Source: Coriobacteriia bacterium
Lineage (GTDB): Bacteria; Actinomycetota; Coriobacteriia; Anaerosomatales; Kmv31
DNA length: 61,474 nt
Assembly: GCA_014859305.1 (NCBI GenBank)
Contig: JACUUM010000005.1
Span: 1 to 61,474 of the forward strand
Direction: 5' to 3'
Shown: one piece after another, positions 14,783 to 42,756 of the stretch
How positions within the stretch are numbered: the first letter of the stretch is position 1
How the letters are laid out: every line of letters begins with the position of its first letter
The notes under the pieces: model-generated
The model's database searches: none
What the model was told of the DNA's origin: nothing
The model's input: only the letters and a program-made list of their open reading frames with translations
Position numbers and translations under genes: made by a program

Positions 14783-16129
14783 TCAGACCCCGCCGTCGTC
14801 GACGCGCCCGCCGCCAGGCGGAGCCGGCCGGCTCCCGCCGCCGGGCTCCTCGGCCCGCCGGGCCTCCCAGCCGCGTTCGCCGGACCGCCAGAAGCGCCGC
14901 CCCACGAGCCCGTCGGGCAGGTACTGCTGCTCGACGCGGGCATCCGGACAGTCGTGCGGGTAACGGTACGCGGGGTACCGGTCCGCTCCCGGGCGGTGAC
15001 GGTCGCGCAGGTGGTCCGGCACGGGCCTCGCGGGCCCCTCCCGCACCTCGGCGAGCGCCGAGTCTATCGCCACGATGGCCGCGTTGCTCTTGGGCGCCAG
15101 CGCGAGGTAGGCGGCGGCTTGAGCCAGGTTGATACGCGCCTCGGGCCAGCCGATGAACTCGGCCGCCTTCACCGCCGCATGGGCCACCAGCACCGCCCGC
15201 GGGTCCGCGTTGCCCACGTCCTCGGCGGCGAAGATCAGCATCCGGCGGGCGATGAACTTGGGGTCCTCGCCCCCGTGCACCATACGGGCGAGCCAGTACA
15301 CCGCCGCGTCGGGGTCGCTCCCGCGCATCGACTTGATGAAGGCGGAGACGACGTCGTAGTGGACGTCCCCGGTCTTGTCGTACGTGAGCGTACGGGTCGC
15401 GGTGGCCTCGGCCACCTCCTCGATCCCGACCTCCCGCGCGCCGTCCGCTCCCGCCGGGGCGATCGCCCCGGCGAGCTCCAGCGAGGTGAGCGCGATGCGG
15501 GCGTCCCCTCCCGCGGTCACGACCAGCCGTTCCACGGCCTCCGGCGTCGCGCGGACCGTCCCCGCGAGCCCCCGCTCGTCGGTGAGCGCGCGCAGCACGA
15601 TCGCGCGCACCTCGTCGTCGGACAAGGCGCGCAACTCGACGATCCGGGAGCGGCTGATCAGGGGGGAGTTCACCTCGAAGAACGGGTTCTCGGTGGTGGC
15701 GCCGACGAGCACGACGATGCCGTCCTCCACGGCATGCAGCAGCGCGTCTTGCTGGGAACGCGAGAAGCGGTGGATCTCGTCGATGAACAGGATCGTCCGC
15801 TGACCCGTCATCCCCAGCCGCTCGCGGGCCTCATCTATCGCGCGGCGCACGTCGGCCACGCCGGAGGAGACCGCGGTCAGTTCCGTGAAGCTCGCCCGGG
15901 TGGTCGCGGCGATGACCCGAGCGAGGCTCGTCTTGCCCGACCCGGGAGGTCCGTACAGGATGAGCGAGGTCAGGGTGTCGGACTCGATGGCGCTGCGGAG
16001 CCAGGTGCCGGGCCCCAGCACGTCGTCCTGCCCCACGAACTCGGCGAGCGAGGCGGGGCGCATGCGCACGGCCAGCGGCGCGTTGCGCCGCGCTGCTTCG
16101 TCCACTGCATCCGAGAAGAGGTCGTCCAT
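14783..16129 (-). CDS. rarA: Replication-associated recombination protein A (AAA+ ATPase RarA/MgsA)
   Basis: PLAVRMRP, Walker A GPPGSGKTS, Walker B LFIDEIHRF, GATTENP, and a MgsA C-terminal domain (HYDVVSAFIKSMRGSDPDAA, YLA.APKSNA). Confidence 0.92.
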   Translation of the reverse strand: MDDLFSDAVDEAARRNAPLAVRMRPASLAEFVGQDDVLGPGTWLRSAIESDTLTSLILYGPPGSGKTSLARVIAATTRASFTELTAVSSGVADVRRAIDEARERLGMTGQRTILFIDEIHRFSRSQQDALLHAVEDGIVVLVGATTENPFFEVNSPLISRSRIVELRALSDDEVRAIVLRALTDERGLAGTVRATPEAVERLVVTAGGDARIALTSLELAGAIAPAGADGAREVGIEEVAEATATRTLTYDKTGDVHYDVVSAFIKSMRGSDPDAAVYWLARMVHGGEDPKFIARRMLIFAAEDVGNADPRAVLVAHAAVKAAEFIGWPEARINLAQAAAYLALAPKSNAAIVAIDSALAEVREGPARPVPDHLRDRHRPGADRYPAYRYPHDCPDARVEQQYLPDGLVGRRFWRSGERGWEARRAEEPGGGSRPAPPGGGRVDDGGV

Positions 16130-20982: not shown

Positions 20983-22206
20983 GTGGTCGGGTGCCACGAG
21001 TCCTCCCTCATCAGGCAGGGTGGGACGTGGACCCTCATAGAGAGCGCCGAGGTGACGCGCGCCAGGACCGCCCTCGCCGCCGAGTCACGCTTCACCTCGG
21101 CCCTGCTGGACGCGACGAGCGCGTTCGTCGTGACGATCGACCCCGAGGGGCGGGTCGTCAGGTGCAACCGCACCTGCGAGGACATCGCTGGGCGCCCTCG
21201 GAACGAGATCGAGGGACGTTACCTGTGGGAGTCCTTCGGCGTCTCTCGCTCGGAAGTCCTGGAGAGGCTGGCGCGGGTGTGGGAGGCCGGCGACACCGTC
21301 GCGTTCGACGCGAAGCTCCCCTGCCACGACGGCCGCGAACTCATCGTGGCATGGTCGGTCGTCGCCGTCACGAACGGCCACGGAGGCGGCAGGTACATCG
21401 TGGCGACCGGTCAGGACGTGACCTCGGAGAGACGGGCCCACGAGAGGCTGCAGGACGCGTACGAGGCGGAGCATCGGATCGCGTGCACGCTCCAGGAGAG
21501 CCTCTTGCGGCCCGTGCCCGTCGTCGAGAAGCTCGACATCGGCGTCGTGTACCGGACCGCATTCGAGACCGCGCAGGTGGGCGGCGACTTCTACGACGTG
21601 TTCGAGCTGACCGAGGACGACGTAGTCTTCATGGTCGGGGACGTCAGCGGCAAGGGCGTCGACGCGGCGGGGTTCACCGAGACGGTGCGGAGCACGCTGA
21701 GGACGCTCGTGCACGTCGGCCTCGGACCTGCCGAGGCGCTCAGCAGAGGTGCCCGGATCCTGCTCCAGGAGGGGCTCGGAGACCAGTTCGCGACCGTCGG
21801 CATCGGCACCCTGGATGCCGCGACCGGCGTCGTGAGGTACTCGAGCGCCGGCCATCCCGCGCCTGCGATCGCAGCGATGTCGGCCAGCACGCTGATCGAC
21901 GTCCCGACCGGTCCGCCCCTCGGCACGTATCCGTACACGTACGAAGAGACCGTGTTCGGCCTCGGTGCGGGCGAATGCCTCGTGCTGTACACGGACGGGG
22001 TCACCGAGGCGCGACACGGCTCCGACCTCCTCGGCGCGGAGGGTCTGCTGGACCACCTGTCCCGAGCCCCCGCGGACCCGACTGCGCTCGCCGACGGGCT
22101 CCTCGAAGCGGCGGAGCGGCACGCCAGGGGTCGGTTGAGCGACGACGTCGCGATCGTCGCTCTCTCCCTGAAGCGCGAGGCGGCGTCCGAGCGGACGACG
22201 GCCTAG
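20983..22206 (+). CDS. PAS-domain PP2C (SpoIIE/RsbU-type) serine phosphatase; the real N-terminus is probably upstream (see findings)
   Basis: PAS (FVVTIDPEGRVVRCNRTCEDIAGR...), then PP2C/SpoIIE motifs (GGDFYDVF, VGDVSGKG, YSSAGHP, LYTDGVTEA, DDVAIVAL). It is in the same frame as 20464..20940. Confidence 0.8.
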   Translation: MVGCHESSLIRQGGTWTLIESAEVTRARTALAAESRFTSALLDATSAFVVTIDPEGRVVRCNRTCEDIAGRPRNEIEGRYLWESFGVSRSEVLERLARVWEAGDTVAFDAKLPCHDGRELIVAWSVVAVTNGHGGGRYIVATGQDVTSERRAHERLQDAYEAEHRIACTLQESLLRPVPVVEKLDIGVVYRTAFETAQVGGDFYDVFELTEDDVVFMVGDVSGKGVDAAGFTETVRSTLRTLVHVGLGPAEALSRGARILLQEGLGDQFATVGIGTLDAATGVVRYSSAGHPAPAIAAMSASTLIDVPTGPPLGTYPYTYEETVFGLGAGECLVLYTDGVTEARHGSDLLGAEGLLDHLSRAPADPTALADGLLEAAERHARGRLSDDVAIVALSLKREAASERTTA

Positions 22207-22569: not shown

Positions 22570-23208
22570 TCAGGCGCGCGGGAAGAACGGGTTGACGAGG
22601 CGCTCGCGGCCGATGGTGGTGTCCGGACCGTGCCCGGGGTGCACGACGGTCTCGTCGGGCAGCGGCGCCAGCCGCTCGGTGATGGAGCGCGCCAGTGCCC
22701 GGCTGTCGCCGCGCGGGAAGTCGGTGCGCCCGACGGAGCCGGCGAAGAGCGTGTCGCCGGAGAACAGACGGCTCTCACCCTGGGCCAGCAGGCAGATGCC
22801 TCCGCTCGTGTGCCCCGGTGTGTGCAGCACGCGCAGCAGCAGCTTGCCGGCCTCGATCGCGTCGCCGTCGTCCAGCAGGCGCTGCGGCGCGGGCGCCGTG
22901 TGCGCGAACCCGAACAGCAGCGCGCCGGTTCCGCCCGCGTCGGTGACGTACGGAGCGTCCTCGGCGTGTATCGCGAGTGGCGCCCCGGTGGAGGAGCAGA
23001 CGGCCTCGGCGGCGCCGAGGTGGTCGAAGTGGCTGTGCGTGAGCACGACGACCGCCACGGGCCGGCCGTCTATGGCCTCGAGCAGGTCCGGCGCCCCGCC
23101 GGCCGGGTCGATCACCACGAGCGGGCCGCCGGCCCCGTCGCCGACGAGGAAGCAGTTCGTCCCCAGCTCGCCCAGCACGAGCCGCTCGACGCTCACGCCC
23201 GGGCTCAC
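22570..23208 (-). CDS. MBL-fold metallo-hydrolase (glyoxalase II-like)
   Basis: THSHFDH motif, HTPGHTSG, FSGDTLF, HPGHG. The GTG start overlaps the relA stop (GTGA). Confidence 0.85.
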   Translation of the reverse strand: MSPGVSVERLVLGELGTNCFLVGDGAGGPLVVIDPAGGAPDLLEAIDGRPVAVVVLTHSHFDHLGAAEAVCSSTGAPLAIHAEDAPYVTDAGGTGALLFGFAHTAPAPQRLLDDGDAIEAGKLLLRVLHTPGHTSGGICLLAQGESRLFSGDTLFAGSVGRTDFPRGDSRALARSITERLAPLPDETVVHPGHGPDTTIGRERLVNPFFPRA

Positions 23209-25415
23209 GCTCTGTCGTCCTTGCGCCTGGAACCCTCGGCCATGCTGCGGGTGGCCTCGAAGACGCCCTCGACCTTGCGGACGTTGGCGAGCACGGTCTT
23301 CAGCTGCTCCATGTCCGAGAGTTCGAAGAGGAAGCGCATGTTCGAGATGCCCTGGCGGTCCGTGGTCACGGAGGCCGAGAGGATGTTGACGCCGGCCTCC
23401 GCCATGGCTGTCGAGATGTCCTGCAGCAGCCGCATCCTGTCGCGCGCCTCGACGACGATCTCCACCTGGTAGCTCGCCGCGGAGCCCGTATCCCACTCGA
23501 CGTCCAGTATCCGCTCCGGCGACCGCAGCAGCTCGGCGCAGTTCGGGCAGTCGCGGCGGTGCACGGACACGCCGCGGCCGCGCGTGACGAACCCGACGAT
23601 GTCGTCGCCGGGAACGGCGTTGCAGCAGCGCGCCATGCGAACAAGCACGTCGTCGATGCCGCGCACGCGCACACCCGCGCCCACGCGCCGCCGCTTCTCC
23701 CGTGGCGGCATCATCGGCACCGTCGGCGGCAGCGGCGGCGCTTCGGGCTCGGCTGCCCTGCCTTCGGCTCGCGCCATCACCTTGAGCACCTTGGTGCCGA
23801 TCTGCTTGGGCGACACCTTGCCCGCCCCGACGTGGGCCAGAAGGTCGTCCGCGGCCTGGAGGTTCATCTCCTCGGCGACGGCTTCCAGCGCGCGGGTCGT
23901 CACCGAGTTGTTCATCCCGATGCCGTGCTTGCGCAGGACCTTGCTCATCTCGTCGCGGCCGCGCTGCAGGTCGTCGGTGCGGGACTCCTTGCTGAAGTAC
24001 GTCCGGATCTTGGAGCGGGCGCGCGAGGACTTGACGAGGTTGAGCCAGTCGCGGGACGGTGAGGCGCTCTTCTGCGTGAGGATCTCGACCCGGTCGCCCA
24101 TCTGCAGCTCGTAGGACAGAGGCACGATGGACCCGTTCACCTTCGCCCCGACGGTGTGGTTGCCGACCTCGGAGTGGATGCCGTACGCGAAGTCCAGCGG
24201 CGTGGAGCCGCGGCGCAGCGAGACGACGTCGCCTTTGGGCGTGAAGACGAAGACCTCGTCCTCGAACAGGTCGATCTTGAGCGCCTCCATGAACTCCCGC
24301 GGGTCCTTGAGCTCGGTCTGCCACTCGAGCATCTGCCGCAGCCACGCCAGCCGCTCGTCGAAGGTCTCGTCGCCGCGCACGCCCTCCTTGTAGCGCCAGT
24401 GCGCCGCGATGCCGTACTCAGCCGTGCGGTGCATGTCCTCGGTGCGGATCTGGATCTCGAGCGGACGGCCTGCCGGGCCTATGACGGTGGTGTGCAGGGA
24501 CTGGTACATGTTGAACTTGGGCATCGCGACGTAGTCCTTGAAGCGCCCCGGGACCGGCTTCCAGATCGAGTGCACCGTTCCCAGCGCGCCGTAAGCGTCC
24601 TTGACCGAGTCCACGATCACCCGCAGCGCGATCAGGTCGTAGATCTCCGAGAAGTCCTTACCTTTCTGCGACATCTTCTGATAGATGCTGTAGAGGTGCT
24701 TGGGGCGGCCCGAGATGCGGGCCTCCACGCCGATCGCGCCCAGCTCGCGAAGGAGCTGGTCGGTGACCTGCCCGAGGTACTCCTCGCGGGCGGCGCGGCT
24801 CTCCGCGACCATCTTCTGTATGCGGTGGTACGTCCGCGGGTCCAGGTAGTAGAAGGCGAGGTCCTCGAGCTCCCACTTGATCGACGAGATGCCCAGCCGA
24901 TGGGCCAGCGGGGAGTAGATCTCCATCGTCTCGATGGCCTTCTGGCGGCGTTTCTCGGGCGGCAGGCTGGCCAGCGTCCGCATGTTGTGCACCCGGTCCG
25001 CGAGCTTGATGAGGATGACCCGGATGTCCTTGGCCATGGCGATGAGCATCTTGCGCATGTTCTGGCTCTGCGCCTCGGCCAGGGAGGAGAACTTGATCTT
25101 GCCCAGCTTGGTCACGCCGTCGACCAGATCGGTGACCTCCTCGCCGAAACGCTCCCGGAGCTCCTTCAGGCCCACCCCTGAGTCCTCGACCACGTCGTGC
25201 AGGAGCGCCGCCTTCAGCGTGGCTGTGTCCAGGTTCAGCTCCGCGAGGATGAGGGCGACCTCGACCGGGTGGTTGATGAACGGCTCGCCGCTCCTGCGGG
25301 CCTGCCCGGTGTGCGCGGACACGGCGAAGTCGTACGCCTCGTCCAGACCGGTGAGGTCCGCCTCGGGGTTGTACGTCTTGACCTGCTCTTCTATCTGTTC
25401 CAGCGTTGCGGGCAC
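23205..25415 (-). CDS. relA: Bifunctional (p)ppGpp synthetase/hydrolase (RelA/SpoT homologue)
   Basis: 736 aa with an HD hydrolase domain (HPVEVALIL...LHDVVED), a synthetase domain (DLIALRVIV, YQSLHTTV), TGS, and a C-terminal ACT-like domain. Confidence 0.95.
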   Translation of the reverse strand: MPATLEQIEEQVKTYNPEADLTGLDEAYDFAVSAHTGQARRSGEPFINHPVEVALILAELNLDTATLKAALLHDVVEDSGVGLKELRERFGEEVTDLVDGVTKLGKIKFSSLAEAQSQNMRKMLIAMAKDIRVILIKLADRVHNMRTLASLPPEKRRQKAIETMEIYSPLAHRLGISSIKWELEDLAFYYLDPRTYHRIQKMVAESRAAREEYLGQVTDQLLRELGAIGVEARISGRPKHLYSIYQKMSQKGKDFSEIYDLIALRVIVDSVKDAYGALGTVHSIWKPVPGRFKDYVAMPKFNMYQSLHTTVIGPAGRPLEIQIRTEDMHRTAEYGIAAHWRYKEGVRGDETFDERLAWLRQMLEWQTELKDPREFMEALKIDLFEDEVFVFTPKGDVVSLRRGSTPLDFAYGIHSEVGNHTVGAKVNGSIVPLSYELQMGDRVEILTQKSASPSRDWLNLVKSSRARSKIRTYFSKESRTDDLQRGRDEMSKVLRKHGIGMNNSVTTRALEAVAEEMNLQAADDLLAHVGAGKVSPKQIGTKVLKVMARAEGRAAEPEAPPLPPTVPMMPPREKRRRVGAGVRVRGIDDVLVRMARCCNAVPGDDIVGFVTRGRGVSVHRRDCPNCAELLRSPERILDVEWDTGSAASYQVEIVVEARDRMRLLQDISTAMAEAGVNILSASVTTDRQGISNMRFLFELSDMEQLKTVLANVRKVEGVFEATRSMAEGSRRKDDRA

Positions 25416-25434: not shown

Positions 25435-28400
25435 TCAGGCGACGGGTGATGGCAGGATAGGGCGGTTGAGGTGTGCTAGCAACTCCTCGGCCGGTGCGCC
25501 GAGCACCCAGGCGCGGAACGACTCGAACGCCTCGATCTCCCGCAGCCCCTCCGCGTAGCGCACCGACGACGTCAGGTCGACCCTGCGCTGCGCGTCGGGC
25601 ACCCGCAGGCGCCGGTACGACCCGCTCCCCTCTCCCGTGGCGAGCCCGAGCTCTCGGAAGACGCCGATGCCGGCGGAGACGCCGCGGTCGGTCAGCCTGC
25701 TCCGGCGGTCCCGCCGCCGGACCCGCTCGGCGAGCTCGGCGTTGGTGACCTCGAACGGCCCTCCCTCGCTCCCGGCCTGCATCTCCCTCAAGGTCAGGTA
25801 GAGCGCGCCGAGATCCTCGCGCGAGGGCGCCGACGAGGAGAGGATCATCTCGTTGAGCCTGGCGTCGTTCGGCCCGAACAGCAGGTGGACCGCGGCGGGG
25901 GCGCCGTCGCGTCCCGCCCGTCCGCACGTCTGGTTGAACTCGACGTCGTTGAAAGGCAGGTGGTAGAGGACGACGTGCCGCACGTCCGCGACGTTGACGC
26001 CCTCGCCGAAGGCGCTGGTCGCGACGACCACCGTGATCTCGCCGTCTCGGAACGCCCGTTCGACGGCGTGCCGGGCGGATCGCGTCAGGCCGCCGTTGTA
26101 GTAGGCCACCCGCCAGGCCACTCCGGGCACGCGACCGCGCAGCGTGCGAGCGATGCGCACCGACTGCTCGCGGCTGTTCACGTACGCGATCAGCTTCTCG
26201 CCCCTCGCCGCCAGCGCGGCCAGGTAGACGTCCTTCTCCTCGGCGCGCCCGGCGGCTCCGCGCCGGTCCTCCAGCGACAGGTTCTCGCGTACCGTCGGGT
26301 CCGCGACGACGGTCTCGATGCCGAGGACCTCGCGCACCGCGCCGGCGGCGGCGTCCCCGGCGGTCGCTGTGACGGCGCACACGACCGGACCGCCGAGGAC
26401 CTCCAGCACGCGGCCGAGCCGCCCGTATGCCGGACGGTGGCCGCCCGCCGTCCGGCCGACGTGGTGGGCCTCGTCCACCACGAGGAAGCGGACCCGCCCG
26501 CTCTCGGCGAAGCGGGCGGAGTCGAGTTCGAGGAACTCCGGCGTGGTGAGCACCACGTCGGCGCGGCCCTCGGCGAGCTGCGAGAACAGCGCGTCCCGTT
26601 CGGTCAGCGTGGACTCGCCCGTGACCGTGCGGCAGGACACGCCGATCGCCGCGAGCGATTCCTCGAGGTGGAACGCCTGGTCCGCGACGAGCGCGCGCAG
26701 CGGGTACACGAAGACGGACGCCTCCGCACACGCGATCGCGCGGCGCGCCGCGTGCACGTGGAAGATGAGCGACTTGCCCCGGCCCGTCGCCATCACCGTC
26801 AGGCAGCTGCGTCCTCGGTCCAGGTGGGCGAGAGCCTCGCGCTGAGCGGAGTGCGGTTCGCGCTCCCCGATGAAGTGGCGCAGGAGCGCCGCCTCCAGCG
26901 CGTCCGGGGCGAGCCCCGCCAGCGCAGCGCGCCGCTCCAGCGCCGCCTCGACCGCCTCGGACGCCTCGGCGGAGGCGTCGCGCCGCGACAGGAGCACGTT
27001 CACGCCGAGGCTCCGCGGGCCCTCCTCGGCCGCGGATCCGGCCGGCGGCTCGCCGCCGGTCACCTCGGTCACCTCGACGTCGTACTCGACGCCGGCATCC
27101 AGGACGGGCGCCAGCGCCGCGGCGAGGTGCCGGTTGAGGAAGCCGACCTGGTCCCCGGCCGCGTCGAACAGCGCGCAGGCGTTCGGGTCGTGGGAGTTGT
27201 CCGGCTGGCGGTCGAGCCGCAGCGGCGTGCCCGGCCGCAGACGAGCGACGACGTCCTGCCGCCCCTCGAACGTGACGCCGGCGAGCTTGCTGTGGAACGC
27301 GTCGGCCTCTCCGATGCCGGCGTATGCCTCCTCGGCGCGGGCCAGCACCTCCTCGGCGCGGGCGAAGAGGTCCTCGACCAGCTCGGCGGCGGGCGCGTCC
27401 CGCGGAGCGGGCCGCGGGCGCACCTCGCGCACCTGCATCGCGACCCGCCGCCGCCCCCGCCACTCGTCGGCGTTGAGCTGGTATGCGAGGTCGACCGCCT
27501 GGCAGCACTCCGTCAGGCTCTCTATGTCCCGGCAGCGGAACGCGATCGCCCCGACCGAGACGGCTCCGTCGAACGCGTCGAACCGAAGGTGGGTGCCGTC
27601 GCGCCCGACCCGGCGGCGGCCGTTCATGAACACGCCGCGCGTCGCGAGCAGCGGGCGGGGGTTCGCGTGCCCGAACGGCTCCAGCAGCGCGATCTCGGCC
27701 TCGAGCTCGAGCGAGAGCGTCTCCAGCGCGACCTCGGCGTCGACCACGGTCTCGACGGCGAACGCGCTCTCGGGAAGCGTCGCCAGCGTGCCGGCCATCC
27801 GCTCGCGGAACTCGTCCAGGCGATCGGCGGGCAGGCTGAGGCCCACGGCCGCGGCGTGGCCCCCGAAGCGGTCCAGGAGGTCCGCCGCAGCGGACACCGT
27901 CTCGTAGAGGTCGACGCGCCCCCACGTCCGGCCGGAGCCGACGGCCGCCCCGTCCTCGGTGCGGAACAGCAGTGTCGGCACGCCGAAGGCCGAGGCCAGC
28001 CGGGCCGCCACGATCCCCTTGACGCCGTCGTGCCACCCCTCACCGGCGAGCACGAGGGCGCGGTCGCCGGGACGCAGCCCTTCGCGCGCGAGCGCCTCGG
28101 CCTCCTCGAACAGGTCTTGCTCCGCCGCCTGCCGCAGCCGGTTGTGCTCGTCGAGCGTGCGGGCCAGCTCGGCGGCGTGGAGCGGTTCCTCGGCGAGCAG
28201 CAGCTCGAGGGCCAGCGCCGGGTCGGCCATCCTCCCCGCGGCGTTGAGGCGCGGGGCCAGCCAGAACGCCACCTGCTCCGAGACGACGGAGTCGATCTCG
28301 ACGCCCGCGACGTGCGCCAGGGCGGCCACGCCGGCCCGCGGACGGGAGCGCATGCGTGCGAGCCCGTCGGCCACCAGCGCGCGGTTCTCGCCGAGCAGCG

Positions 28401-29121
28401 GCACGACGTCGGCCACCGTGCCCAGCGACGCGAGGTCGGTCAGCTCCCGCCAGCCCTCCGTGTCGCCCAGGGCGCGCCCGACGGCCTGCACGAGCTTCAG
28501 CGCCACGCCCGCGCCGGCGAGGTCGCACCCCGGCGCCTCGCGCCCGGCGAGCTTGGCGTCCACGACCGGCACGCCTCGCGGCACGCCGGCGCCCGGCTCG
28601 TGGTGGTCGGTCACCACCGCCCGGACGCCCGCGGCGAGCAGGCGGTCCACCTCCGCGGCGGAGGAGATCCCGCAGTCCACCGTGACGACGAGCCCCGGGC
28701 GCTCGGCCAGGATCCGCTCGATGGCCGGCTCCGAGAGACCGTACCCCTCCCGGAAACGATGCGGCACCAGCGCCACGGCCTCTCCGCCGAGTGCCCCGAG
28801 ACCGCACGCGCCCACGGCCGCCGCCGAGATGCCGTCGAGATCGAAGTCGCCGAAGACGACAATCCGCTTCCCCTCCCGTACCGCCGCGGCGACCTCGGCG
28901 GCCGCCTCGGGCATGCCGGGCAGCTCCTCGGGCGGCCGCCAGGACAGGTCCAGCGACGGCGCCAGGAACGCCCGGGCCCGGGCCGGTTCCGAGATGCCCC
29001 TGGAGGCGAGCAAGCGAGCCATGACCGGCGAGAAGCCGCCCTCCTCGGCCAGCCGCCGGCAGGCGGCCTCGTCCACGCGCGCGAGGCGCCAGGGGCTGCG
29101 GGGACAAGCGGCTTCCGTCAT
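25435..29121 (-). CDS. recJ: RecJ exonuclease fused to a HIRAN domain and a RecQ-like SF2 helicase
   Basis: RecJ DHH/DHHA1 motifs (GDFDLDG, TVDCGISS, VVTDHHEP, GGHAAAVG). HIRAN-like LRLDRQPDNSHDPNACALF..VGFLNRHLAAALAPVLD. Helicase motifs MATGRGKS, VVDEAHHV, VTATAG, QTCGRAGRDG. The ORF is open from 29151 (GTG); I prefer the ATG at 29121 because a TAGGAT box lies inside the longer version. Confidence 0.85.
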   Translation of the reverse strand: MTEAACPRSPWRLARVDEAACRRLAEEGGFSPVMARLLASRGISEPARARAFLAPSLDLSWRPPEELPGMPEAAAEVAAAVREGKRIVVFGDFDLDGISAAAVGACGLGALGGEAVALVPHRFREGYGLSEPAIERILAERPGLVVTVDCGISSAAEVDRLLAAGVRAVVTDHHEPGAGVPRGVPVVDAKLAGREAPGCDLAGAGVALKLVQAVGRALGDTEGWRELTDLASLGTVADVVPLLGENRALVADGLARMRSRPRAGVAALAHVAGVEIDSVVSEQVAFWLAPRLNAAGRMADPALALELLLAEEPLHAAELARTLDEHNRLRQAAEQDLFEEAEALAREGLRPGDRALVLAGEGWHDGVKGIVAARLASAFGVPTLLFRTEDGAAVGSGRTWGRVDLYETVSAAADLLDRFGGHAAAVGLSLPADRLDEFRERMAGTLATLPESAFAVETVVDAEVALETLSLELEAEIALLEPFGHANPRPLLATRGVFMNGRRRVGRDGTHLRFDAFDGAVSVGAIAFRCRDIESLTECCQAVDLAYQLNADEWRGRRRVAMQVREVRPRPAPRDAPAAELVEDLFARAEEVLARAEEAYAGIGEADAFHSKLAGVTFEGRQDVVARLRPGTPLRLDRQPDNSHDPNACALFDAAGDQVGFLNRHLAAALAPVLDAGVEYDVEVTEVTGGEPPAGSAAEEGPRSLGVNVLLSRRDASAEASEAVEAALERRAALAGLAPDALEAALLRHFIGEREPHSAQREALAHLDRGRSCLTVMATGRGKSLIFHVHAARRAIACAEASVFVYPLRALVADQAFHLEESLAAIGVSCRTVTGESTLTERDALFSQLAEGRADVVLTTPEFLELDSARFAESGRVRFLVVDEAHHVGRTAGGHRPAYGRLGRVLEVLGGPVVCAVTATAGDAAAGAVREVLGIETVVADPTVRENLSLEDRRGAAGRAEEKDVYLAALAARGEKLIAYVNSREQSVRIARTLRGRVPGVAWRVAYYNGGLTRSARHAVERAFRDGEITVVVATSAFGEGVNVADVRHVVLYHLPFNDVEFNQTCGRAGRDGAPAAVHLLFGPNDARLNEMILSSSAPSREDLGALYLTLREMQAGSEGGPFEVTNAELAERVRRRDRRSRLTDRGVSAGIGVFRELGLATGEGSGSYRRLRVPDAQRRVDLTSSVRYAEGLREIEAFESFRAWVLGAPAEELLAHLNRPILPSPVA

Positions 29122-29128
29122 GGTCACG

Positions 29129-29134
29129 ATCCTA
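29129..29134 (-). promoter_or_regulatory. Candidate -10 box TAGGAT, 7 nt upstream of the recJ-fusion ATG (leaderless candidate)
   Basis: The minus strand reads GAGTAGGATCGTGACCATG. Confidence 0.35.
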
Positions 29135-29214
29135 CTCGACGCCTCCGACACGGGACGGGGGGCGCGGCCGGCGATCGGCCGCTCCCCGCCGCGAGTGACG
29201 GACGGGCCCTCGGG

Positions 29215-30129
29215 CTACGAGGTGCGGCCGGCCCGCTTGGCCAGCGCGCGGTACTTGGGCTCGGTCTCCTTCCACATGACGTACAGGGGCGTGGCGAAAC
29301 CGATCGAGGAGTACACGCCCAGCGCTATCCCTATCATCAGCGCGAACGCGAAGTCCTGCAGGGTCTCCCCGCCGAAGAAGAACAGCACGATGACCGGGAT
29401 GATCGAGGTCACCGACGTGTTGAGCGAGCGTATGAGCACCTGGTTCAAGGAGTCGTTGGCCATGTGCGAGAAGGTCGTCTTCACCAGGTGCTGCGAGTTC
29501 TCGCGGATACGGTGGAAGACCACGACCGTGTCGTACAGCGAGTATCCCAGGATGCTCAGCAGCGCCGCGACGGTGTTGGGCGTGACCGCCCGGGCGGCGA
29601 GCGCGTAGACGCCGAGCACGATGACGATGTCGTGGACCAGCGTGCCCACGGCGATGACGCTCATCTTGTACTCGAAGCGAACGGCGATGTAGAGCAGGAT
29701 CGCCCCGAGCGAGACAGCGAGCGCCAGCAACGCCGCGTTCGTTATGTTGCGGCCCCACCCGGGCCCGATCGTGGTGACGTTCGGCTCCTGCTCCGGCAGC
29801 CCGAGGATCCCGGAGAGCCGGTCGAGCGCCTCCGCGGCCGCGTCCGGGTCCGACTCGGCCGTGCGTACGATGAACTCGCCCTCCTCGGTGCGCTGGATCG
29901 TCGCGTTGGCCGCCTCGGGGACCCCGGCGTCGTCGAGCGCCTGCCGGACGTCCTCGACGCCGGTGTCGTCCGCGCCGATGAAGTGCATCACCGTGCCGCC
30001 CTGGAACTCGATGCCGAAGGTGAGTCCCCGGACCGCGAGAGCCACCACGGAGAACAGCACCAGCGCCGCCGAGAACGCGAGGAGCCAGCGGCTCCTGCCG
30101 ATGAACTCGATCCTAGGCACGGGTCCCAC
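29215..30129 (-). CDS. secF: Protein translocase subunit SecF
   Basis: Typical SecF layout (FIGRSRWLLAFS, GIEFQGGT, six TM segments, LNTSVTSIIPV). It overlaps the secD stop. Confidence 0.93.
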   Translation of the reverse strand: MGPVPRIEFIGRSRWLLAFSAALVLFSVVALAVRGLTFGIEFQGGTVMHFIGADDTGVEDVRQALDDAGVPEAANATIQRTEEGEFIVRTAESDPDAAAEALDRLSGILGLPEQEPNVTTIGPGWGRNITNAALLALAVSLGAILLYIAVRFEYKMSVIAVGTLVHDIVIVLGVYALAARAVTPNTVAALLSILGYSLYDTVVVFHRIRENSQHLVKTTFSHMANDSLNQVLIRSLNTSVTSIIPVIVLFFFGGETLQDFAFALMIGIALGVYSSIGFATPLYVMWKETEPKYRALAKRAGRTS

Positions 30130-31408
30130 CTCCCCTCAGGCCGAGGAGCCAGGGCGTCTTGGACGCCGCCGACTCGGCGATGAGGATCATCGCGGGCCGT
30201 GTCAGGAACCAGGCGACGAACAGGTCGACGGCCAGGCCGATCATCAGCGTGAGCGCGAACCCCCTCACCGGCCCGATCGACAGGACGTACAGCACCAGCG
30301 CGGTGACGAACGTGACGAGGTCGCCGTCGAGGTTCGTCCCGTAGGCGTGCCGGGTGCCGGAGACAGCGGCGCTGCGGGCGGTCTTGCCCAGCCGCACCTC
30401 CTCCTTGAAGCGCTCGAACATCAGGATGGCCGAGTCGGCTGCCAGGCCGACGGTGAGCACGATGCCCGCGATGCCGGGCAGCGTCAGCGTGAACACGCCC
30501 GCTTTCGACATCACGGCCAGGATCCCGAGGAAGATCGAGCCGAAGACGCCCAGGCTGACCCAGCTGAGCACGCCGAGGCCCCGGTAGACCGCCAGCATGT
30601 AGACCGCCACGAGCCCCAGGCCCGCCAGACCCGCCAGCAGGCCCTGGCGAAGCGACTCCTGTCCCAGGGTCGGGCCCACGACGCGCGACTCCGAGAACTC
30701 CAGCGAGACGGGCAGGGCACCCGCTTCCAGCACCGCGGCGAGCCGCCTCGCCTCTTCCGGCGTGAAGTCGCCGGATATCTGCGTCTCGCCCGTGGGGATG
30801 CGCTCCCTGATCTGCGGCGCGGACTGGACGGTGCCGTCGAGCACGATCGCGACGCGCTCGCCCACGTTGGCTCCGGTGTACTGCGCCCAGGCCTCGGCGC
30901 CCCGCCGGTCCATGCTCAGGTTCACGACGATCCTGCCCAGGTCGTCCGTACCCGGGGCCGCCCGCTGTATGACCTCCCCGGTCAGCACGGGCTCGTAGGG
31001 GGTGCCCTCCGGGATCTGCGCCCCCTCCTCGATGCCGGCCTGCACGGTCGCCGGCAGGCTCGCGACGTCCACGAACTCGAGCCGGCCGGTGCTGCCGAGC
31101 GCCTCGAGCGCGCCTTCCACGTCACGGACGCCGGGAAGCTGCACGAGCAGCGACCGGTCGCCCTGGCGCTGCACGGTCGCCTCGGAGACGCCGAGGCCGT
31201 TCACGCGATTGAGCATGACGGTCTCGACACGCGCCATCTGCTGCTGGGTCACACCGACTTCCTCGGCGGTGAGGATGACCGAGACACCGCCTTGGATGTC
31301 GAGCCCCTGCCGTATCTGGGCGCCCGGCGGCCAGAACTGCCACCAGGCCAGCGCGGCCAGGACGACCATGGCCGCGACGAACAGCACGTTGCGTTGCCTG
31401 GGATCCAT
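30113..31408 (-). CDS. secD: Protein translocase subunit SecD
   Basis: GLDIQGGVSV, a periplasmic-type P1 domain, and a C-terminal TM bundle (GIAGIVLTVGLAADSAILMFERFKEE). Confidence 0.93.
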   Translation of the reverse strand: MDPRQRNVLFVAAMVVLAALAWWQFWPPGAQIRQGLDIQGGVSVILTAEEVGVTQQQMARVETVMLNRVNGLGVSEATVQRQGDRSLLVQLPGVRDVEGALEALGSTGRLEFVDVASLPATVQAGIEEGAQIPEGTPYEPVLTGEVIQRAAPGTDDLGRIVVNLSMDRRGAEAWAQYTGANVGERVAIVLDGTVQSAPQIRERIPTGETQISGDFTPEEARRLAAVLEAGALPVSLEFSESRVVGPTLGQESLRQGLLAGLAGLGLVAVYMLAVYRGLGVLSWVSLGVFGSIFLGILAVMSKAGVFTLTLPGIAGIVLTVGLAADSAILMFERFKEEVRLGKTARSAAVSGTRHAYGTNLDGDLVTFVTALVLYVLSIGPVRGFALTLMIGLAVDLFVAWFLTRPAMILIAESAASKTPWLLGLRGGGTRA

Positions 31409-35491: not shown

Positions 35492-36565
35492 CTACAGGAT
35501 GAGCATGGCGTCGCCGAAGGACAGGAAGCGGTAGCCCTCCCGCATGGCCGTGCGGTACGCCCCCATCACGTTCTCGCGTCCCGCGAATGCGCTCACCATC
35601 ATCAGCAGGGTGGACCGCGGCGCATGGAAGTTCGTCACCAGGGCGTCCACGACGTTGAAACGGAAACCGGCCAGGATGAAGAGGTCCGTGCGCCCCTCGG
35701 CGGGAACCACCTCTCCGCTCTCGTGGTCGTAGGCGGACTCGAGAGCGCGCACGACCGTCGTCCCGACCGCGACGACCCGGCCACCGCGCCTGCCGGCCTC
35801 GGCGGTCTCGCGCGCAGCGGCCTCGCTCAGGTGGAAGCGCTCGGCGTGGATCCGGTGGTCCTCGGCGTTCTCCTCGGTGACGGGGAGGAACGTGTCGATG
35901 CCGACGTCGAGTCCTATGCGCGCCACGCGCACTCCCCCGCGGCCGAGGCGCTCCAGCAGCCCGGGGGTGAAGTGCAGGCCCGCGGTCGGGGCGGCCGCCG
36001 AGCGCTCCTCCCGGGCGAAGACGGTCTGGTAGAGCTCCGGGTCCTCCAGGGGCTCGGTGACGTACGGCGGGAGCGGGATCTCGCCCAGCTCGTGGACGGC
36101 ATCCATCAGGGTGGGCGTCGAGTAGGCGAGATGCAGCAGCCGCCCGCCCCCCTCGAGCTGGTCCACGACGAGCGCGGTGAGGCCGCCGTCGCCGAACACG
36201 ATCCGCGCGCCGGGCTTCAGCCGCCTCCCCGGCCGGACGAGGCACTCCCAGGTGTCCTCGTAGCGCTCCCGGAGGAGCAACACCTCGACCGCGCCGCCGG
36301 TGGCGTCCTTGGCGCCCTTGAGCCGCGCGGGCATGACTCGCGTCTCGTTGACCACCAGCAGATCGCCCTCGGACAGCAGCTCGGGCAGGTCGGCGAAGAC
36401 GCGGTGGTCGACCTGGCCGCTGACGCGGTCCAGCACGAGCAGCCGGCACGAGTCCCGTGGCTGGGCGGGGTGCTGCGCGACGAGCCCGCTGGGAAGGTCG
36501 TAGTCGAAGTCCTCGGTGAGCACGGCGTGCCTCTCATCGGGGCGGCCGAAGGGAGTATACGCCAT
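35492..36565 (-). CDS. queA: S-adenosylmethionine:tRNA ribosyltransferase-isomerase
   Basis: FDYDLPSGLVAQHPA, LLVVNETRV, PLPPYV, TAGLHFT, VGTT..RALES. Confidence 0.95.
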   Translation of the reverse strand: MAYTPFGRPDERHAVLTEDFDYDLPSGLVAQHPAQPRDSCRLLVLDRVSGQVDHRVFADLPELLSEGDLLVVNETRVMPARLKGAKDATGGAVEVLLLRERYEDTWECLVRPGRRLKPGARIVFGDGGLTALVVDQLEGGGRLLHLAYSTPTLMDAVHELGEIPLPPYVTEPLEDPELYQTVFAREERSAAAPTAGLHFTPGLLERLGRGGVRVARIGLDVGIDTFLPVTEENAEDHRIHAERFHLSEAAARETAEAGRRGGRVVAVGTTVVRALESAYDHESGEVVPAEGRTDLFILAGFRFNVVDALVTNFHAPRSTLLMMVSAFAGRENVMGAYRTAMREGYRFLSFGDAMLIL

Positions 36566-41676: not shown

Positions 41677-42756
41677 TCAGAACAGCCCCCCCTGCCCGCT
41701 CGCGTCACCCGACCCCTCCGGCGCGCGCAACCCGAGGTGTTCGTAGGCGCGCGGGGTGACCTGACGCCCCTTGGGCGTGCGCATCAGGAAGCCGAGTTGC
41801 AGCAGGTACGGCTCGTACACGTCCTCCAGCGTGTCCGGCTCCTCGCCCACCGCCGCGGCGAGCGTGCCCAAGCCGACGGGCTTCCCTGAGAACTTGTGGG
41901 CGAGCGTCCCCAGGATGGTGAGATCCATCCGGTCCAGCCCCACGTGATCGACCTCGAAGAACGCGAGCGCCTCGGCGGCGACATCCTCGTCCACCGCCCC
42001 CTCGCGGCGCACCTCCGCGTAGTCGCGCACCCGCTTGAGCAGCCGGTTCGCCAGCCGCGGCGTGCCTCGCGACCGCCTGGCGATCTCGGCGGCGCCCTCC
42101 TCGTCGGCCTGGACGCCCAGGATCCCCGCCGACCGCCGCACGATCGCCTGCAGCTCCTCGGGTGTGTAGTAGTCGAGCCGCAGCGACATGCCGAACCGGT
42201 CGCGGAGCGGCCCCGTGAGAAGGCCGGTCCGCGTGGTCGCGCCCACCAGCGTGAAGCGCGGCAGGTCGAGCCTCAGGCTGCGCGCGGCGGGACCCTTGCC
42301 GATGACGACATCGATCGAGTAGTCCTCCATCGCGGGGTAGAGGACCTCCTCCACGGCGCGGTTGAGCCGGTGCACCTCATCGATGAAGAGCACGTCGCGC
42401 TCCTCCAGGTTCGTCAGGATGGCCGCGAGGTCCCCGGCGCGCTCGACGGCGGGTCCGGACGTCGTGCGGAGGTGCACGCCGAGCTCGTTGGCGATGACGC
42501 CGGCCAGCGTGGTCTTTCCGAGTCCCGGCGGACCGGACAGCAGCACGTGGTCAAGCGCTTCGCCGCGCGCCTTGGCGGCCTGGAGCAGGACGCGCAGGTT
42601 CTCCTTCACGCGGCCCTGGCCGAGGTACTCGTCGAGCGTACGCGGACGCAGACTGCGATCGATCTCGACGTCGTCCTCGGTGAACCCCGCCGACACGAGC
42701 CGCTCGGAGTCCTCCTCCGACCGGCCTCCGGGGTCGCGCAGGTCCTCGGCGCCCAC
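41677..42756 (-). CDS. ruvB: Holliday junction branch migration ATPase RuvB
   Basis: [11 protein letters not shown], Walker [34 protein letters not shown]. Confidence 0.95.

Follow-up and report, generated by a model that had tools for sequence, protein, structure and literature searches.

A recJ-slot gene of Coriobacteriia that joins RecJ, HIRAN and a RecQ-like helicase in one chain

What kind of enzyme does a bacterium have in its recJ position when the open reading frame (ORF) found there encodes not only a RecJ exonuclease but also a HIRAN domain and a RecQ-like helicase? The question is raised by a gene at 25435..29151 on the minus strand of a 61,474-nucleotide stretch of a Coriobacteriia bacterium of the Anaerosomatales (GenBank assembly GCA_014859305.1, contig JACUUM010000005.1, positions 1 to 61,474 of the forward strand), the whole of which is called the window here. 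The ORF listing gives the gene 1238 codons and a stop, with no internal stops. An initial annotation, made from the letters of the DNA, had proposed that all three modules are present in one chain, and this has held up, as profile searches and structure prediction recover each of them and the frame is conserved across hundreds of assemblies. The product is best read as a single-chain, ATP-driven enzyme that would resect 5' strands or widen gaps under the guidance of a sensor for 3' ends, a reading to which we give a probability of about 0.6. The six Pfam domains that had been predicted for it (DHH, DHHA1, RecJ_OB, HIRAN, DEAD and Helicase_C) all score above their gathering cut-offs at the positions expected, and the parts of the protein, from the N-terminus onwards, are as follows.

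28417..28866, minus strand: RecJ DHH domain, aa 96-245 (Pfam, above the gathering cut-off)
27787..28062, minus strand: RecJ DHHA1 domain, aa 364-455 (Pfam, above the gathering cut-off), with the GGH motif that includes H432
27427..27744, minus strand: RecJ OB fold, aa 470-575 (Pfam RecJ_OB, E 1.5e-22)
27289..27426, minus strand: linker, aa 576-621, a variable stretch, then two short predicted helices (about aa 589-605) and a conserved run into HIRAN
27082..27288, minus strand: HIRAN, Pfam match at aa 622-690 (PF08797, 40.9 bits against a gathering cut-off of 24.7, E 1.9e-10)
26356..26847, minus strand: helicase lobe 1 (DEAD), aa 769-932 (Pfam, above the cut-off), with motif I (GRGK793S), motif Ia and motif II (D893-E894-A-H)
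25903..26211, minus strand: helicase lobe 2 (Helicase_C), aa 981-1083 (Pfam, above the cut-off), with motifs IV, V and VI (GR1078AGR1081DG)
25438..25902, minus strand: C-terminal tail, aa 1084-1238, free of cysteine, modelled as helix-helix-helix-strand-strand followed by two long helices

The RecJ half carries the aspartates of DHH motif I (D102/D104/D106), D159 of motif II and D182-H183-H184 of motif III, and also D248. It passes the NCBIfam equivalog model for recJ, TIGR00644, with 442.7 bits against a cut-off of 396.9, aa 41-575 matching model positions 2-544 of 546. In sequence it matches the RecJ of Deinococcus radiodurans (5f54) with an E-value of 3e-88, the match ending at residue 532 of that 705-residue chain, and in Foldseek the predicted structure aligns with Staphylococcus aureus RecJ (8y30) over 548 columns at a root-mean-square deviation of 2.3 A and with D. 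radiodurans RecJ (5f55) over 559 columns at 3.6 A. The DHH and DHHA1 domains and the OB-like tail that had been recognised by eye at aa ~95-575 are therefore substantiated by Pfam and by the equivalog model, and this half is a complete RecJ core with its motifs intact, predicted to be active as a 5'-3' exonuclease.

A HIRAN domain had been placed at residues ~619-700, and both the Pfam score and a profile match to the HIRAN structures of HLTF agree with that placement, the predicted fold extending somewhat further, to about aa 723. The profile of this region, built from 30 diverse family members, matches the HLTF HIRAN structures 2mzn, 4xzf, 5bnh and 4s0n at an E-value of ~4e-12 and the bacterial HIRAN protein lp_0118 (3k2y) at 1e-8. 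Two signatures are recognised, GVTF(628)EGRQ and N652-x-x-D655-x-N-A658, with N652, D655 and A658 of the latter invariant in the 30 members and aligned with NPYDKNA of HLTF. The aspartate of this signature we take to be the equivalent of HLTF D94, the residue that contacts the 3'-OH. The position of HLTF Y93 is held by H654 in the window protein, with Y, H or F in the family and Y as the consensus, and the conserved F628 of GVTFEG, which lies in a stretch outside the HMMER alignment, is probably the counterpart of HLTF Y72. In HLTF the pocket flanked by Y72 and Y93 takes single-stranded DNA (PMC4666394), and HIRAN domains recognise the 3' DNA ends of stalled forks (PMC6222260). A loop of the HIRAN fold also contains an insertion rich in proline, alanine and glutamate, EPPAGSAAEEGP (aa 701-712, 27043-27078, minus strand), which is missing in about one third of close relatives and is modelled at lower confidence (predicted local distance difference test score, pLDDT, of ~77).

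The helicase has RecQ proteins as its nearest relatives by both sequence and fold. The best sequence matches in the PDB are to RecQ (4tmu at 5e-33 and 1oyw at 1e-31), followed by RECQ4, WRN, RECQ5 and BLM, and the best fold matches are the catalytic cores of RecQ, RECQ5, WRN, RECQ1 and BLM. In Foldseek the helicase and the tail together span the whole of the bacterial RecQ catalytic core, with 505-517 columns aligned to targets of 511-516 residues. The helix-helix-helix-strand-strand unit at the start of the tail resembles a winged helix and is well ordered in the model; no Pfam family, RQC included, matches the tail of the window protein, and a profile of the tail finds weak matches in the PDB to winged helices of the ArsR/MarR type.

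In an AlphaFold2 model of the C-terminal half (aa 581-1238) the mean pLDDT is 94.5 and the predicted template modelling score (pTM) is 0.91, which suggests that HIRAN, the two helicase lobes and the tail together make up a single defined unit. The model of aa 39-1238 has a pLDDT of 92.6 and a pTM of 0.75. A search of solved structures found no chain that spans both the RecJ half and the HIRAN-helicase half.

Could so long a frame be an accident, either a chance ORF in GC-rich DNA or adjacent genes joined by an error of sequencing or assembly? The window has a G+C content of about 72%, and long chance ORFs do occur in it: antisense to the gene, on the plus strand, an ORF of 1432 codons at 25885-30183 exceeds the real fusion gene in length and is one that a naive gene caller choosing the longest ORF might wrongly pick. 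With a longer antisense ORF present at such a composition, ORF length alone is little proof of coding. The GC content by codon position is more telling, being 0.79/0.52/0.94 in the minus frame, with a third-position value of 0.90-0.98 in each 60-codon window, both inter-module junctions included. The plus-strand ORF gives 0.94/0.51/0.76, a mirror of the minus frame, and is thus a shadow ORF typical of GC-rich DNA, with the minus frame the coding one. Among 78 related loci six are frameshifted (L047, L052, L054, L062, L070 and L077), which might be held in favour of an accident, but all six come from one series of metagenome-assembled genomes (MAGs; 'MFD...bin'), so that assembly indels are likelier here than true pseudogenes. 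The fusion is also found in hundreds of independent assemblies, isolate genomes among them. The linker at the junction of RecJ and HIRAN forms two short helices in the model rather than a disordered tether, its conserved residues include L595, F596, Y610, I613 and F619, and the segment that enters HIRAN is among the best-conserved parts of the chain. Codon-position GC and conservation across assemblies rule out a frameshift, a misassembly or a chance ORF, and the chance we still allow to an artefact is vanishingly small.

The uninterrupted run of 1238 codons on the minus strand is in this way borne out, with a correction to its start only. The ORF opens with GTG at 29151, and an in-frame ATG at 29121 (M11) has AGGA ~9 nt ahead of it and serves as the start in a database copy of the protein (P0001, 1228 aa). 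The true start is probably this ATG, which would give a protein of 1228 aa, 10 residues shorter than the form that begins at GTG.

Relatives preserve both the architecture and the residues expected to matter for it. In the first homology search, which drew on NCBI, ENA, JGI and Logan assemblies, the chain recurs in more than 120 clusters; the best 120, at 90% identity, all share the architecture, are 1160-1245 aa long and are 60-73% identical, and in ~60 of the 78 loci, which come from species-representative genomes, RecJ, HIRAN, helicase and tail lie in one frame. Sequence conservation is even along the chain. The large majority of 175 full-length fusions keep the HIRAN signature, motifs I-VII of RecJ and motifs 0-VI of the helicase, the key catalytic residues being present in ~90% or more, with motif 0 weaker and more variable. 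An alignment of 104 sequences, reaching down to ~29% identity, has the RecJ metal ligands D102/D104/D106, D159, D182-H183-H184, D248 and H432, the helicase residues K793 (Walker A), D893-E894 and the motif VI arginines R1078 and R1081, and HIRAN N652/D655/A658 invariant or nearly so. That the motifs are conserved in most relatives points to selection on motor activity in most lineages.

How might such a protein work? According to a passage of PMC4846377 that cites Morimatsu and Kowalczykowski 2014, RecJ starts alone on 5' overhangs, and blunt or 3'-tailed ends need the 3'-5' RecQ helicase. In the fusion, the RecQ-like motor would travel 3'-to-5' on one strand and displace its complement, whose 5' end would pass to the attached RecJ and be degraded 5'-to-3'. 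A 3'-5' motor and a 5'-3' nuclease that act on opposite strands run the same way along a duplex, and a covalent pair of the two is therefore geometrically sensible. In this way one chain might widen single-strand gaps or carry out resection at ends that are blunt or 3'-tailed. HIRAN, for its part, may recognise a free 3'-OH, be it that of the 3' strand at a break, of the primer where a gap has its upstream edge, or of the nascent leading strand when a fork has stalled, and such recognition could load the motor and orient it. At a gap the three modules would each find a substrate, with the primer 3'-OH of the upstream edge going to HIRAN, the single-stranded template to the motor and the 5' end of the downstream edge to RecJ, and a break, or a fork that has a gap in the leading strand, could offer the same match of module to substrate. 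Relatives that lack HIRAN would perform the same task with no sensor of 3' ends.

A bolder version can be put forward tentatively. HIRAN might hold on to the 3'-OH while the motor and RecJ move away degrading the 5' strand, with the 3' strand looped out and protected for the loading of RecA. The enzyme could then replace separate RecQ and RecJ proteins, and perhaps machines of the AddAB/RecBCD type, across the Coriobacteriia and in some Clostridia, and it would be a bacterial, chromosomal counterpart of the HIRAN-SF2 (superfamily 2 helicase) design of HLTF/Rad5. This is possible, although we hold it with distinctly less confidence than an even chance.

The natural variants of the family bear directly on what each module contributes. 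When the C-terminal half was searched against 1.84 billion representatives clustered at 50% identity, 681 matched at E<=1e-30. Architectures were counted in the best 150 of these 681, the classes being confirmed by Pfam on sampled members: RecJ-HIRAN-helicase accounts for 45 representatives, RecJ-helicase without HIRAN for 25 and HIRAN-helicase without a full RecJ for ~12, the remainder being fragments. To judge from these sequences, the RecJ-helicase fusion is class-wide in Coriobacteriia and HIRAN is the variable part of that wider family. The HIRAN-bearing form occurs there in Anaerosomatales, in many unclassified MAGs and in the cultured Kribbibacterium absianum. Cultured Eggerthellaceae (Curtanaerobium, Slackia piriformis, Gordonibacter, Paraeggerthella, Enteroscipio, Adlercreutzia and Raoultibacter) and Atopobiaceae/Olsenella have the HIRAN-less form, of ~1110-1135 aa, under the annotation 'RecJ'; such fusions are found at loci L060, L066, L067, L069, L071, L072 and L078 (proteins P0279-P0398). 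In a rough neighbour-joining tree of helicase and tail the HIRAN-bearing and HIRAN-less Coriobacteriia interleave, which suggests that HIRAN was lost several times independently; the Eggerthellaceae of the gut and the Atopobiaceae are families that have lost it.

Beyond Coriobacteriia, all three modules are found in the protein annotated as RecJ in the cultured Clostridia Thermincola potens JR (ADG82069.1, UniProt D5XEJ8) and T. ferriacetica, and also in MAGs of Clostridia; distant members occupy a secDF-[fusion]-(apt)-relA-dtd slot. The deepest lineage in a housekeeping slot, P0241-P0245 (L086 6001-9570, 64% GC), has decayed helicase motifs I, II, III and VI together with an intact RecJ DHH and HIRAN signature, and its helicase is, as far as the motifs allow a prediction, a pseudo-helicase. 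The Bacillota protein P0264 (L084 6001-9234) has partly degenerate ATPase motifs, an intact RecJ DHH and no HIRAN.

Several of these observations weigh against a motor-driven enzyme guided by 3' ends, as do some features of the helicase itself. The repeated loss of HIRAN implies that it is not essential to the function of the fusion, and the decay of the ATPase in P0241-P0245, and in part in P0264, implies that the C-terminal half can be useful without a motor. The helicase of the window protein reaches only 162.1 bits with the recQ_fam model TIGR00614, below the cut-off of 219.8, and with the recQ equivalog TIGR01389 it falls further short (169.3 bits against 640.2). There are no cysteines in aa 1084-1238 or in the family consensus of the tail, which therefore lacks the four-cysteine zinc-binding subdomain of RecQ, and Pfam gives no RecQ_Zn_bind match in the window protein. 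Nor does Pfam give a match to HRDC, the chain stopping ~55 residues past the winged-helix-like unit. The aromatic-rich loop that follows motif II, which in RecQ couples DNA binding to ATP hydrolysis, reads DEAHCISQWGHDFRPEY in RecQ and DEAHHVGRTAGGHRPAY in the window protein, so that W and F are gone and only HRPxY is conserved. With a score below the cut-off, neither zinc cysteines nor HRDC, and an altered loop, both the 3'-5' polarity and the coupling have to be treated as assumptions. The RecQ-like helicase that had been claimed at aa ~760-1100 stands as far as the DEAD and Helicase_C domains and the kinship to RecQ go, and fails if a canonical RecQ is meant; what the sequence predicts is a RecQ-like SF2 core and not a canonical RecQ.

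The same observations could be explained if the HIRAN-helicase-tail half were a targeting scaffold, that is, a DNA-binding platform that brings RecJ to 3' ends, to junctions or to DNA coated with SSB, with unwinding secondary or dispensable. This half would then stand in for the C-terminal domain with which other long RecJ proteins bind SSB. The main support for it comes from P0241-P0245, which have lost the four helicase motifs yet keep RecJ and HIRAN, and from the partial degeneration in P0264. The altered aromatic-rich loop would also fit, as would the point of fusion, the linker being positioned where the RecJ proteins of D. radiodurans (drRecJ) and Thermus thermophilus (ttRecJ) bear a C-terminal domain of their own; that of drRecJ binds SSB-Ct and helps to orient the OB fold (PMC4846377). 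Against a scaffold, all ATPase and helicase motifs are kept in the window protein and in most by far of its 175 full-length relatives, and we regard it as rather unlikely.

Taking the protein, then, as a coupled motor and nuclease, it is of interest to ask which known systems it resembles. The closest in predicted activities is the pair of RecQ and RecJ in the RecF pathway of Escherichia coli and D. radiodurans, a 3'-5' SF2 helicase of RecQ type and a DHH 5'-3' exonuclease for single-stranded DNA, which act at ends, gaps and forks. There the two are separate proteins, whereas here they are covalently joined with HIRAN in between, and RecQ of that pathway has the zinc-binding and HRDC domains, both missing from the fusion helicase, which scores below the recQ_fam cut-off. 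For D. radiodurans the authors found no evidence that drRecJ interacts directly with drRecQ (PMC4846377).

WRN likewise has a nuclease N-terminal to a RecQ-type helicase in one chain, and its structures are among the best fold matches. WRN is eukaryotic, its nuclease is a DEDD-type 3'-5' exonuclease, and it contains zinc-binding, RQC and HRDC domains but lacks HIRAN; the fusion differs in having a nuclease of the DHH 5'-3' type. HLTF/Rad5 also pair HIRAN with an SF2 ATPase motor, in a setting of DNA-damage tolerance, and share the N-x-x-D-x-N-A signature with the fusion. The motor of HLTF is, however, an SNF2-type translocase on double-stranded DNA with an embedded RING that drives fork reversal and PCNA ubiquitination (PMC4666394), whilst that of the fusion is RecQ-like and joined to a nuclease.

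A likeness of logic is also seen in AddAB, RecBCD and AdnAB and in eukaryotic Dna2/Sgs1-Dna2, where a motor is physically coupled to a nuclease for end resection. Enzymes of the AddAB/RecBCD/AdnAB class have SF1 motors and RecB-family PD-(D/E)XK nucleases in heteromeric complexes; in the fusion only SF2 (DEAD, Helicase_C) and DHH/DHHA1 domains are found, in a single chain, and the likeness to that class is functional only. Nuclease-fused DinG proteins are bacterial SF2 helicases whose chain also carries an N-terminal nuclease; PMC12345164 and PMC13650095 describe S. aureus DinG with a 3'-5' exonuclease and EndoDinG. Those are 5'-3' helicases of the XPD family with DEDD or PD-(D/E)XK nucleases and are unrelated to RecJ, RecQ or HIRAN. 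Thus none of WRN, HLTF/Rad5, AddAB/RecBCD/AdnAB and nuclease-fused DinG unites a DHH nuclease, HIRAN and a RecQ-like motor.

Long-form RecJ proteins, such as those of D. radiodurans, T. thermophilus, S. aureus and Bacillus alcalophilus, have the same core with an accessory module after the OB fold, that of B. alcalophilus being a PIWI-like domain (bioRxiv 10.1101/2020.02.19.956169). The additions in long-form RecJ are small protein-interaction or PIWI-like domains, whilst the fusion adds a unit of 660 residues made of HIRAN, helicase and winged helix. Another origin would be the insertion of a HIRAN-helicase unit into a long-form RecJ, with the tail as the ancestral RecJ C-terminal domain (PF10141, ssDNA-exonuc_C) and the standalone forms as secondary truncations. 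This possibility is raised by 14 of 29 family tails, which match PF10141 weakly, with E-values up to 1; the matches cover the winged-helix portion of the tail and model positions ~97-186 of 202, and one of them is above the cut-off (33.7 against 26.4 bits).

The standalone HIRAN-helicase-tail proteins, of ~630-680 aa, three of them 633-657 aa long (L079 6001-7974, L080 265-2193 and L081 632-2533), nest among the fusions in a distance tree, as truncations would, and one of them, P0168 (63% GC), stands directly after an ORF that ends like the C-terminus of SecF (38% identity over 45 residues, E 5e-8) and so appears to be in the recJ slot without a RecJ domain. Set against this, the window protein's own tail has no PF10141 match, the long RecJ of S. 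aureus (8y30) is matched neither by the tail profile nor by the best-scoring tail, the linkers after the OB fold give no PF10141 signal, and helicase and tail align along the whole of the bacterial RecQ catalytic core. The last homology search on this model returned only fragments of the fusion family itself. An origin by insertion is, on balance, unlikely.

No description or test of the RecJ-HIRAN-helicase architecture was found in the open-access full-text literature, in agreement with the earlier statement that no biochemical description of it was known. The architecture is already in public databases, including the entries of the cultured Thermincola potens and Kribbibacterium absianum, where it is named only 'single-stranded-DNA-specific exonuclease RecJ', and in such cultured carriers the plain annotation 'RecJ' hides half of the protein. 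New here are the class-wide fusion of Coriobacteriia, its loss of HIRAN, the three-module RecJ of Thermincola, the divergent copies in plasmid-like settings that are discussed below and the lineage with a decayed helicase.

A single chain probably carries out a repair step for which textbook bacteria use two proteins. For the question of how RecQ and RecJ are coordinated, a natural covalent fusion, modelled with high confidence as a defined assembly, offers a ready object for structural and single-molecule study of the coupling of unwinding to degradation of the 5' strand. The family supplies natural controls in its HIRAN-less and decayed-helicase variants, and culturable carriers are at hand in Thermincola potens, Kribbibacterium absianum and gut Eggerthellaceae such as Gordonibacter and Slackia. 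Prokaryotic HIRAN has so far been discussed mainly in selfish elements and phages (PMC6222260); the fusion places a bacterial HIRAN in a chromosomal, housekeeping setting, paired with an SF2 motor as in HLTF/Rad5.

That setting is seen in the genes on either side, of which the nearest neighbours and some others of the window are listed here.

41677-42756, minus strand: ruvB, same window
35492-36565, minus strand: queA, same window
30113-31408, minus strand: secD, upstream neighbour
29215-30129, minus strand: secF, upstream neighbour
23205..25415, minus strand: relA/spoT, downstream neighbour, starting 19 nt past the stop of the fusion gene
14783-16129, minus strand: rarA/mgsA, same window

The fusion gene is part of a core Gram-positive block, all of it on the minus strand, with yebC, ruvB, queA, tgt, an HD protein, secD and secF upstream and relA/spoT, hisS, aspS, rarA/mgsA, alaS and mltG downstream. 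The other recombination or replication-restart genes of the 61-kb window are rarA/mgsA and ruvB, and no homologue of recQ, addAB or recBCD was found among its scanned ORFs. No promoter-like or terminator-like sites were found between secD and relA, the gap between the fusion gene and relA included, which gives a weak hint, the absence of sites being weak evidence, that the fusion gene is co-transcribed with the secD-relA stretch. RelA adjoins the fusion in 69 and SecF in 58 of the 78 related loci, and Coriobacteriia conserve the order tgt-secD-secF-[fusion]-relA-hisS, which recurs in distant loci of Bacillota type. The conserved order supports the reading of the gene as the resident recJ locus, and the earlier placing of it in the secDF-recJ-relA slot, as the housekeeping RecJ of the organism, is well founded on these neighbours and on synteny over the 78 loci.

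The setting also bears on whether the fusion might belong to conflict systems, the HIRAN-helicase coming from mobile elements and the protein acting mainly on foreign or mobile DNA, in defence, anti-defence or the replication and recombination of an element. HIRAN is considered a derivative of selfish elements and of the replication modules of phages (PMC6222260), and with PADLOC models the helicase core scores as high against DpdF (196 bits) and PsyrT (175 bits) as it does against RecQ. Two very divergent full fusions, P0215 and P0203 (26% and 47% GC; L083 6001-9702 and L085 6001-9633), have as neighbours ParM/ParA, RadC, MazE, a Toprim topoisomerase, an intein-carrying DNA methylase and RecD2, so that their surroundings look like those of a plasmid or of an integrative and conjugative element, away from secDF-relA, and the standalone HIRAN-helicases P0158 and P0160 have small ORFs with HTH_3 regulators around them.

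The window gene and most of its relatives, by contrast, sit in the vertically conserved tgt-secDF-recJ-relA-hisS core block, and no dpd or toxin-antitoxin partner genes stand beside the window gene. Membership of the DpdF or PsyrT defence systems is itself ruled out, as the matches are limited to the helicase core (positions ~10-370 of models 534-689 long) and the neighbours are secDF, relA, tgt and hisS. Viral sequences offer no closer relative: the BFVD viral models hold only generic RecQ-like helicases, GenBank phages give only helicase-core matches at ~28% identity and up to 65% coverage, and scans of IMG/VR returned no relative that contains HIRAN. A phage origin of the HIRAN-helicase unit is unsupported by all three, with two anecdotal mobile-looking contexts remaining, and for the chromosomal copy of the window a role mainly in conflict is highly unlikely.

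A further gene of the block concerns relA and hisS rather than the fusion. Between these two, at 20983-22206 on the plus strand, lies a gene for a PAS-SpoIIE protein (a PP2C-type phosphatase). As the distance from relA to hisS is only ~0.7-1.1 kb in many related loci, this gene looks like a lineage-specific insertion in the otherwise conserved block.

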